Assembly (NCBI GenBank): GCA_963737905.1
Contig: CAVTUQ010000005.1
Location: 96,001 to 160,000, forward strand
Source of the DNA: an uncultured delta proteobacterium
Lineage (GTDB): Bacteria > Desulfobacterota > Binatia > UBA9968
Direction: 5' to 3'
DNA length: 64,000 nucleotides
In this document: positions 3,997 through 5,165 of the stretch, one piece after another
How the letters are laid out: the number at the start of each line of letters is the position of its first letter
Numbering within the stretch: position 1 is the stretch's first letter
Notes under the pieces: generated by a model
The model's database searches: none
Told to the model about the DNA's origin: nothing
The model's input: the letters and a program-made list of their open reading frames with translations, nothing else
Made by a program: the position numbers and the translations under genes

Positions 3997-4692
3997 TCAA
4001 AGACCGACATAAGCAATCGGGTCGTCGAGCCCGACCTCCTTGAAACCTTTCAAACGGAGTTGGCAACTGTCGCACAGCCCACAAGCGCGTCCGTCGGGTG
4101 CAGGATCATAGCAACTCCAGGTGAGACCATAGTCTAGGCCAAGTTCGATGCCTTTTCTAATGATCTGTGCCTTGTTCATTGCAATCAAGGGCACATGAAT
4201 CTTGATCCGGCTCTTGCCTTCGACCCCTGCCTTGGTGGCCAGGTTGGCCATCGCCTCGAATGCGCGAATGTATTCCTCTCGGCAGTCCGGATAACCGCTG
4301 TAATCGAGCTGGTTGGCGCCGAAGAAAATATCTCCGGCCTCAATGCGCTCCGCTAGAGCCAGGGCAAAAGCGAGGAAAATCGTATTCCGCGCCGGAACAT
4401 AGGTAACGGGGATATCGCCGGCCATTTCTTTTGTGCTTCGCCCCTTGGGCACGTCTATTTGGTCGGTAAGCGCGGAGCCGCCGATGGAGCGAAGATCGAA
4501 ATCGGTCACCCGGTGGGTTTTCGTTTGTAAAAATGCCGCCACCTTCTTGGCGGCATCGATTTCCCGCTGATGGCGCTGCCCATAACGAAAACTCAGCGCG
4601 TGAAGCTGGAAGCCCTGCTGTTTGGCTATCGCGGCGGCGGTGGCGGAGTCGAGCCCGCCGCTCAAGAGAATAACCGCGTCTGTCCCTATCAT
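3997..4692 (-). CDS. queC: 7-cyano-7-deazaguanine synthase
   Basis: [35 protein letters not shown]; start moved to ATG 4692, which overlaps the upstream stop (ATGA). Confidence 0.95.
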
Positions 4693-5165
4693 TTTTGCGG
4701 CGAGGTGATTTTTGTCCCTTCCACCGGGTAGTGTTTTTGATACCAGCCGACAATGCCCTCGTCGAGGACTTTCATGTTGCGGTAACCCTTTTCGTAGAGA
4801 ATGCCATAGGCCAAACTGGCCAGGTGATGGGGACAAGCTCAATACAAGATGACTAATCGATCCTTGGGAATGCTTTGCACATAAGCATTGAACTCCGTGA
4901 GGGGCGCAGATATCGCGCCCAAAATGTGCACCTCACGGTACTCTTCGTCAGTGCGCACGTCGATGATCAGCGGCTTTTTTCCCGATTGGATATCTTTCGT
5001 GAGCTCATCCACAGAAATTAGTACAACGTTTGCCGGGGGTGATTGCTGGGCGAATTGGGGATATTTCGATGGATCGGCTTCGGCCGGCTGGCATCCGAAA
5101 AGAACACCCGCCAAAACTCCGACAATGAAGAAAGAGCTTGCTCGTGGACCAGGAAGGAGCTTCAT
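4689..5165 (-). CDS. Rhodanese-domain lipoprotein, probable selenoprotein (Sec at UGA 4839-4841)
   Basis: Lipobox [19 protein letters not shown]; in-frame TGA at the active-site Cys position (VILY-U-ACP); frame continues [20 protein letters not shown] to a TGA at 4689-4691. Confidence 0.85.
4804..4830 (-). promoter_or_regulatory. Candidate bacterial SECIS element
   Basis: mRNA CCAU-CACCU-GGCCA-GUU-UGGCC-U-AUGG; loop G 23 nt downstream of the UGA. Confidence 0.6.

Follow-up and report, generated by a model that had tools for sequence, protein, structure and literature searches.

The window analysed here (the whole stretch of 64,000 nucleotides (nt) from contig CAVTUQ010000005.1 of assembly GCA_963737905.1, an uncultured delta proteobacterium placed in Binatia) carries on its minus strand a gene cluster encoding a SCO1/SenC-type copper chaperone, a VKOR-thioredoxin fusion, a putative rhodanese-like selenoprotein, and QueC (Table 1). 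The third of these genes is listed as an open reading frame (ORF) of 108 amino acids (aa; 5165..4839) that ends in RLVILY and is followed by TGA. When this TGA is read as selenocysteine (Sec, U), the frame extends for 49 further codons up to a second TGA (4691..4689), and the product has 158 residues. A first-pass annotation, made from the sequence letters alone, had suggested that the listed ORF halts where rhodaneses have their catalytic Cys, that the frame continues for 49 codons with a rhodanese C-terminus, and that it ends in an ATGA overlap with the queC start. All three points were borne out: U109 aligns with the rhodanese catalytic Cys, the longer frame is present, and the overlap was found at 4692..4689. 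The Pfam Rhodanese domain (PF00581) matches residues 52-143 (E 3.1e-16, 60.1 bits versus a cut-off of 22.2), and because this match crosses codon 109, the continuation of the frame past the TGA reflects homology and not chance. A second ATGA overlap joins the start codon (ATG 5165..5163) to the TGA that ends the VKOR gene upstream. The TGA at 4839-4841 is not an assembly error; it is bridged by DNA contigs of three studies (X1, X3, and X4), with no difference there among the stronger ones listed (21 weaker differences exist besides).

Table 1. Features of the rhodanese-like selenoprotein locus and of the Sec machinery. Positions count from the first letter of the window, except where a contig is named.
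Feature	Position	Strand	Remarks
Predicted selenoprotein gene	5165..4689	minus	158 codons plus final TGA, translated with TGA as U; exported single-domain rhodanese-like protein, U109-x-C111
In-frame TGA, codon 109	4841..4839	minus	Predicted to be read as Sec; single interruption of the 158-codon frame
Cys111 codon TGT	4833..4835	minus	Second residue of the U-x-C motif
SECIS-like hairpin	4804..4824	minus	RNAalifold consensus, frozen synonymous sites, pair counts
ATGA overlap	4689..4692	minus	Stop of the selenoprotein gene and start of queC (ATG 4692..4690)
GGAGG, Shine-Dalgarno-like motif	5172..5176	minus	Putative, from sequence; 6 nt upstream of the ATG
Signal peptide, residues 1-30	5076..5165	minus	Predicted from sequence; hydrophobic N-terminus, ends AEA before DPSKY
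SCO1/SenC-type copper chaperone / thioredoxin-fold protein	6054..6701	minus	PF02630, E 6.9e-30; first gene of the cluster
VKOR membrane domain fused to thioredoxin-like domain (WCPHC)	5162..6040	minus	PF07884, E 2.2e-24
queC (7-cyano-7-deazaguanine synthase)	3997..4692	minus	PF06508, E 5e-74; match to residues 6-220 of 231 aa
DUF58 protein	3983..3090	minus	Directly downstream of queC
BatA/VWA protein	3086..1296	minus	Follows the DUF58 gene
selD, selB, selA cluster	contig C29:71024-75669		Loci L001, L003, L011

The in-frame TGA is conserved among related genomes. A six-frame search of 61 such genomes (matches counted at E ≤ 2.4e-30) gave 38 matches in 37 of them, and all but the match in genome G007 contain an in-frame TGA (37 of 38), which recurs among matches down to 40% protein identity. 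Among 30 translated loci, 29 share the motif [LF]YU[AQ]CP[HR]HLA[SG]LAY with the TGA in one and the same column, down to 43% identity (28 of 29 when locus L038, from the unpublished genome G012, is set aside), and the exception, L049 of G007, reads FYGNRPRHLASSAY. A wider census, which adds named public records of metagenome-assembled genomes (MAGs), comprises 62 loci, some of them from the same genomes seen twice and all of them kin; TGA occurs in 60 (45 distinct 45-mers), Gly in one, and one is cut off. Within the 41 columns 3' of the TGA, 24 are conserved at ≥90% as an amino acid, and 20 of these 24 use at least two synonymous codons. The tail beyond the TGA is therefore selected as protein, since its conserved residues show synonymous codon variation.

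These patterns bear on the possibility that the TGA is a true stop, which would leave a truncated protein of 108 residues and the last 49 codons either untranslated or used as a small ORF starting at TTG (4814..4689), or that the gene is a pseudogene. Gene callers agree with a stop, as 119 of the best 120 database relatives are 91-110 aa long and cover 51-68% of the query, and the failure to find a tRNA-Sec gene in the assembly (see below) would also fit. A true stop is nevertheless very improbable, given the recurrence of the TGA at low protein identity, the downstream frame conserved as protein, the constraint on the hairpin that follows, and the loss of the last helices and strand that truncation would impose on the rhodanese domain. 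The short entries instead match the earlier remark that Sec rhodaneses are routinely truncated by gene callers; the four that were fetched all end in LY, and the sole entry of 154 aa (P0002) has W at the TGA. Public protein sets thus end this family at codon 108, and because 119 of the best 120 database relatives are of this shortened length, the protein is mis-described in the whole lineage.

Homologues with Cys in place of Sec are available for comparison. When 1.84 billion representatives were scanned with HMMER, single-domain homologues at 30-49% identity turned up, and 10 of the 11 aligned database homologues read YC[ASG]CP with Cys at both positions, so that the Cys/TGA pairs anticipated by the first-pass annotation do exist. 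U109 also aligns with the catalytic Cys of the structures 6mxv (loop CGSGFRS) and 3r2u (loop CQSGIRS).

The TGA is followed by a hairpin resembling a bacterial selenocysteine insertion sequence (SECIS). Its core, GGCCA-GUU-UGGCC, had been pointed out before and is present at 4821..4809, with the loop G as the 23rd base after the UGA. The consensus computed by RNAalifold from 27 distinct Sec sequences (with the U of UGA as position 1) has a 5-bp stem (G21-A25/U29-C33), a loop of G26-U27-U28, and a bulged U20, and adds a 2-bp lower stem (C18C19/G37G38). For comparison, the geometry of the E. coli fdhF element includes a bulged U and a G-U in the loop, and bSECISearch applies spacing rules to such elements. 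Synonymous sites were examined because the amino acids across the hairpin are invariant. The five hairpin codons have a codon entropy of 0-0.61 bits (GCC in 27/27, AGT in 26/26, and GCC in 25/27). For 30 other conserved columns with fourfold or sixfold degeneracy, the median is 1.60 bits and the lowest value 0.43 bits, found in the Gly codon from which G37G38 derives. The rank test of hairpin codons against the other columns (p = 3e-4) is indicative only, as the sequences are related.

Base pairing in the core stem is retained in nearly all of the 45 distinct sequences, as 216 of the 225 core-stem cells are Watson-Crick pairs, eight are G-U pairs, and one is a mismatch. Locus L073 carries a double compensatory change from G21-C33 to C-G via two synonymous substitutions; C33U (G-U) occurs in seven distinct sequences and A25G (G-U) in one. 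The loop G26 is invariant, and the loop reads GUU in 37, GUC in six, and GGU in two sequences. In the sole orthologue without Sec (L049, with a GGA codon), two of the five core pairs are broken. In the selD gene of the same genome, the Sec codon is likewise followed by a hairpin, of 8 bp, which shares the A-GUU-U apex and lies 11 nt farther from the UGA. A bacterial SECIS element has been described as a stem-loop that directly follows the UGA on its 3' side and whose small apical loop includes a G (PMC1088965). The hairpin of the rhodanese gene corresponds to this published description, with its 5-bp stem, its loop of GUU, GUC, or GGU, and its start 17 nt past the UGA.

The genome encodes most of the Sec machinery. 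Scores for selA (606.9 bits), selB (409.8), and selD (381.4) all exceed their cut-offs (267.9, 242.25, and 125, respectively), the three genes lie together on one contig, and selD carries one in-frame TGA and itself encodes Sec (GUAAK). A look for selA, selB, selC, and selD had been suggested at the outset; the expectation held for the three protein genes, while selC was not found in an assembly that is 87.5% complete and consists of 46 contigs. No tRNA-Sec was recovered there with Rfam model RF01852, ARAGORN, or blastn. The best match to RF01852 scored 46.6 bits versus a cut-off of 47, and both ARAGORN and Rfam assign it to tRNA-Leu; ARAGORN counted 44 tRNAs in the assembly, with none for Sec. 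Scanning the selB locus with Rfam at permissive settings gave no tRNA-Sec, and blastn searches of the assembly with the tRNA-Sec genes of four relatives gave only matches of 16-25 nt. In some lineages selC can sit inside selB (PMC13188914), and the selB locus of this assembly had no match of that kind. Four of the five relatives tested have a tRNA-Sec over the cut-off (72.8-77 bits, anticodon tca). With selA, selB, selD, and at least three TGA-containing genes present in an assembly that is 87.5% complete, the tRNA-Sec gene probably was not assembled.

Read-through of the UGA by other means, either by near-cognate insertion of Trp or Cys or under a reassigned code, would also give a full-length protein, and the translation of entry P0002 with W at the TGA is in line with it. 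It is the least probable of the readings considered, in view of the full set of selA, selB, and selD, the Sec codon of selD itself, the SECIS-like hairpin after the TGA, and the existence of Cys homologues. Moreover, the code is not reassigned, since TGA ends both the neighbouring VKOR gene and the selenoprotein gene.

Taken against the Sec interpretation are the missing tRNA-Sec and several features of the hairpin and of its transcript coverage. The core stem of one locus with Sec (L089) contains a mismatch, and the lower stem, which is weak as modelled, is disrupted in 3-6 of the 45 distinct sequences. Because the stem is almost invariant, and the sequences are also kin, the covariation rests on few events. 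One run of RNA sequencing (X18) covers parts of queC and SCO1 and only 31 nt of the selenoprotein gene (4805-4835, with loose ends), and this piece probably derives from the conserved hairpin region of a relative, so that the run speaks neither for nor against expression of the gene. With these points weighed, the core of the first-pass reading, a hidden exported Sec rhodanese with a Cys nearby, stands on the conserved TGA, the Cys homologues, the constrained hairpin, the presence of selA, selB, and selD, and the truncated database entries. We estimate a probability of about 0.9 that the UGA at codon 109 encodes Sec and that the gene is a mis-annotated selenoprotein gene of a U-x-C variant.

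The exceptional copy in G007 has lost the Sec site. In locus L049 (G007:C39), Gly replaces Sec and Arg replaces the second Cys (FYGNRPRH); the VKOR gene upstream and queC downstream are retained, as is selA in the genome, and, as judged from these replacements, the protein is a redox-dead variant. Among ten tested related genomes without a TGA-containing orthologue, one of which is G007 with its Gly variant, selA is present in eight. Gene presence or absence thus does not track the Sec trait and lends no extra support, because selA occurs in these eight genomes too.

The predicted protein has a rhodanese homology domain, as PF00581 scores over its threshold, an alpha/beta fold is modelled, and Sec takes the position of the catalytic Cys. 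An AlphaFold model built from a 29-sequence alignment (mean predicted local distance difference test score (pLDDT) 87.2, predicted template modelling score (pTM) 0.77) has a strand at residues 105-108, a loop at 109-113, and a helix at 114-125. With these boundaries, the loop that follows the central strand opens with Sec109 and also contains Cys111. The top Foldseek matches in PDB are all rhodanese-like (3nhv, 6mxv, 2kl3, 3tp9, YgaP, and others). Residues 1-30 have a pLDDT of 56-60 in the model. In the orthologues, the signal peptide ends in A-x-A ahead of an almost invariant segment of 11 residues (DPSKY...), and the lipobox Cys of LFGC occurs only in the copy of the window (1 of 30 loci). 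Because of the A-x-A in orthologues and the restriction of the lipobox Cys to one locus, the protein is likely exported and cleaved by signal peptidase I and is probably not a lipoprotein; of the exported lipoprotein first proposed, the LFGC motif and the export stand, and the lipoprotein is not supported.

The active-site loop has a bearing on function. In classical sulfurtransferase rhodaneses the loop comprises six residues of the CRxGx[RT] type, with a basic residue. The loop of the window protein (U-A-C-P-H-H) departs from that motif, as it has no Arg, is one residue longer than loops of the CxxGxR type, and needs a one-residue gap to align with them. Cys111, in turn, is Cys in all 27 distinct Sec sequences and in 10 of the 11 aligned database homologues. 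A classical sulfur (or selenium) transferase, in which Sec109 would carry and pass a persulfide- or selenosulfide-type adduct, Cys111 would be accessory, and VKOR and SCO1 would be unrelated operon mates, is consistent with the rhodanese fold and with U at the catalytic position; known Sec rhodaneses are also listed as 'rhodanese-related sulfurtransferases' (PMC1088965; PMC13188914). The altered loop and the second Cys speak against it, and the retention of this Cys in Sec sequences and Cys homologues therefore points to two-residue chemistry, so that a purely classical transferase seems rather unlikely. An arsenate-reductase or phosphatase-like function was rejected, the loop having no Arg.

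Selenoproteins of the rhodanese type are nothing surprising in kind, having been predicted since 2005. A 'rhodanese-related sulfurtransferase' was among the new selenoprotein families from the Sargasso Sea (PMC1088965), a UxU form was described from Olavius symbionts (PMC1976440), and a 2026 review tabulates five forms, namely UxxS, UxxG, CxU (NF041203), UxxG, and UxxxxU (TsoB) (PMC13188914). The forms numbered 1, 2, and 4 (UxxS and UxxG) and the UxU form likewise have Sec in the rhodanese active-site loop, and those known forms were predicted by the same kinds of evidence as here, a conserved TGA, Cys homologues, and a SECIS-like hairpin (PMC1088965; PMC13188914; PMC1976440). The U-x-C of the window family matches none of the five tabulated forms, from which it is set apart by the printed motifs only. 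Literature searches on Binatia selenoproteins, on rhodanese with VKOR, and on periplasmic CXC rhodaneses returned no report of a U-x-C family, within the text passages and tables covered. Sec rhodaneses are thus already a known kind, and the U-x-C arrangement of the active site appears uncatalogued in the text of these sources.

The best NCBIfam match is NF041203 'rhodanese_LYCAU' (E 2.8e-18; 65.8 bits, below the cut-off of 115). Like the window protein, members of NF041203 are small single rhodanese domains with a signal peptide, a Cys/Sec pair spaced by two after L-Y, and a TGA in the active-site loop, and four genuine members (171-182 bits) have the signal peptide, the single domain, and [LF]YC[SAT]U. 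In NF041203, however, Cys takes the canonical position and Sec lies two residues on, whereas the order is reversed in the window family, in which Sec is canonical and Cys follows (YU[AQ]C). The residues after the pair also differ, with P-[HR]-H-L-A-S in the window family versus [PLR]-[NHD]-E-[AG]-T-S in the four NF041203 members, and so does the distribution, as NF041203 scores over its cut-off in 21 of 151 genomes of the phylum, in contrast to the window family in 1 of 150 outside its own order. The U-x-C family would accordingly represent a sixth arrangement for rhodanese selenoproteins, in which Sec is canonical and the resolving Cys comes two residues later, as a mirror image of NF041203. 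The TsoB rhodanese/DsbD fusion (NF045694) is more distant, with 32.3 bits versus a cut-off of 805; the window protein is a single domain of 158 aa without UxxxxU.

Proteins with Y-C-x-C-P-H (e.g., P0141 from MAGs of Rokubacteria/Methylomirabilota) are 30-49% identical over the domain and have the same loop with Cys for Sec. They share a signal peptide or an exported context, some being fused to cytochrome c (P0255), but have neither the TGA nor the terminal motif of the window family. PspE, GlpE, and the structures 6mxv, 3nhv, and 2jtq have the same fold and the same position of the catalytic residue, and PspE is periplasmic. Classical single-domain rhodaneses differ from the window protein in having one Cys and a CxxGxR-type loop, as opposed to Sec with a second Cys, no Arg, and a longer loop. 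The window family is very likely a lineage-specific Sec derivative, within Candidatus Binatia by record titles, of the wider Y-C-x-C-P-H group.

The selenoprotein gene is embedded in a partly conserved cluster. In 30 loci, several of which end early at contig ends, VKOR lies upstream on the same strand in 25, SCO1 upstream in 23, and queC downstream on the same strand in 18; loci L046 and L048 have SCO1 without VKOR, and three loci (L042, L044, and L047) have other neighbours. The CPYC and WCP-C columns of the VKOR-thioredoxin fusion are invariant across 18 orthologues. A DUF58 gene comes after queC in most of the loci that extend far enough. By contrast with the Sec family, none of 13 loci of the Y-C-x-C-P-H homologue in Rokubacteria-type MAGs (three inspected by ORF listing) has VKOR, SCO1, or queC beside it, so that the synteny argument is confined to Binatia. 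One of them (L098:4504-4977) encodes a Cys homologue (YCACPHH) followed, with a 4-nt overlap, by a gene for a Fur-family regulator (PF01475, E 5e-21), and in L101 and L103 an ORF with the same N-terminus as this regulator, recognised by that N-terminus only, starts where the homologue match ends.

The public MAGs with the gene are labelled Candidatus Binatia or carry the older labels Deltaproteobacteria, Thermodesulfobacteriota, or Syntrophobacter, and include several closed chromosomes; all holders are uncultured. Among 150 further genomes sampled from the phylum as the search tool delimits it, outside the family's own order, there was a single match at E ≤ 1e-20. This match (G096:C287:3420-3647) is 50% identical over residues 79-154, contains one TGA, and lies within a frame of 476 aa; it may be a fused relative of the U-x-C family.

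The neighbours and the motif also raise the possibility of a metal-handling selenoprotein, in which U-x-C-P-H would serve in the periplasm as a binding site for Cu(I) or some other soft metal, the protein working with SCO1 in copper delivery or detoxification. The presence of SCO1 in the same cluster (23 of 30 loci) and the overlap of the Rokubacteria-type homologue gene with a Fur-family regulator gene are compatible with such a role, and U-x-C and C-U motifs are listed for metal transport or binding selenoproteins (PMC13188914). There is, however, no fixed His pair, because the first His after Pro is replaced by Arg in 10 of 59 loci and the residue that follows varies in the Cys homologues, and no metal-binding family was matched in Pfam and NCBIfam scans; metal handling is accordingly unlikely.

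On balance, the locus very probably holds a single gene with a recoded UGA, whose product is an exported, rhodanese-like selenoprotein of 158 residues; this protein may have a thiol-redox or sulfur-transfer role in the cell envelope. SelB and tRNA-Sec would recode the UGA at codon 109 as Sec, directed by the hairpin 17 nt downstream with its small G-U-containing loop. Sec109 occupies the position that is canonically catalytic in the rhodanese fold, with Cys111 two residues on in the same loop, and in the envelope Sec109 may act as the nucleophile and Cys111 as its resolving partner. The pair may cycle between selenol/thiol and selenylsulfide or carry a persulfide-type adduct. Possible partners in such a thiol-redox or sulfur-transfer task are the SCO1 copper chaperone and the quinone-linked VKOR-thioredoxin fusion, both presumably co-transcribed with the gene.

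The redox part of this scheme is tentative, with a chance somewhat below even. Four observations weigh against the proposed function: U and C are both gone from the G007 copy, whose synteny is intact and whose genome has selA, the active-site loop has no Arg of the kind found in classical sulfurtransferases, VKOR is absent from 5 of 30 loci, and the Cys homologue of the Rokubacteria type adjoins neither VKOR nor SCO1. Once the selenoprotein identity is granted, envelope redox would be, in rough terms, the leading role at less than an even chance, followed by sulfur transfer as a weaker candidate and metal handling as the weakest of the three. The conserved cluster of SCO1, VKOR-thioredoxin, and Sec rhodanese points to a use of selenium in the envelope redox and copper biology of uncultured soil Binatia.

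The same genome encodes a candidate for a second rhodanese selenoprotein. On contig C40 (2258-3376, minus strand; L093:1001-2119), a fusion of a DedA/VTT membrane domain (PF09335) with a rhodanese domain comprises 373 residues and contains LYCSUPNE; the TGA stands second in the pair (C-x-U), a hairpin follows, and NF041203 matches with 79.9 bits versus the cut-off of 115. The occurrence of U-x-C and C-x-U in one genome offers a natural experiment on which position gains from selenium. A broader scenario, speculative and improbable as a whole, would combine these threads. Candidatus Binatia would run a selenium-dependent envelope module in which the U-x-C rhodanese serves both SCO1 and the quinone-linked VKOR-thioredoxin fusion as a redox partner that works through its selenol, and the maturation of copper centres or disulfides would depend on selenium supply. 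Translation of queC would be coupled to Sec decoding via the two ATGA overlaps, and the C-x-U and U-x-C rhodaneses would stem from two independent Cys-to-Sec conversions, with either residue of the pair able to be the nucleophile.

Open frames similar to the DedA-rhodanese fusion, of ~330-390 aa and with one TGA, occur in several relatives. Elsewhere in the phylum, some NF041203 matches (e.g., G113:C16, G210:C368, G105:C20, and G143:C27) have two in-frame TGAs, several of them in frames of 550-575 aa; these matches could be of the UxU form or belong to larger selenoprotein fusions.

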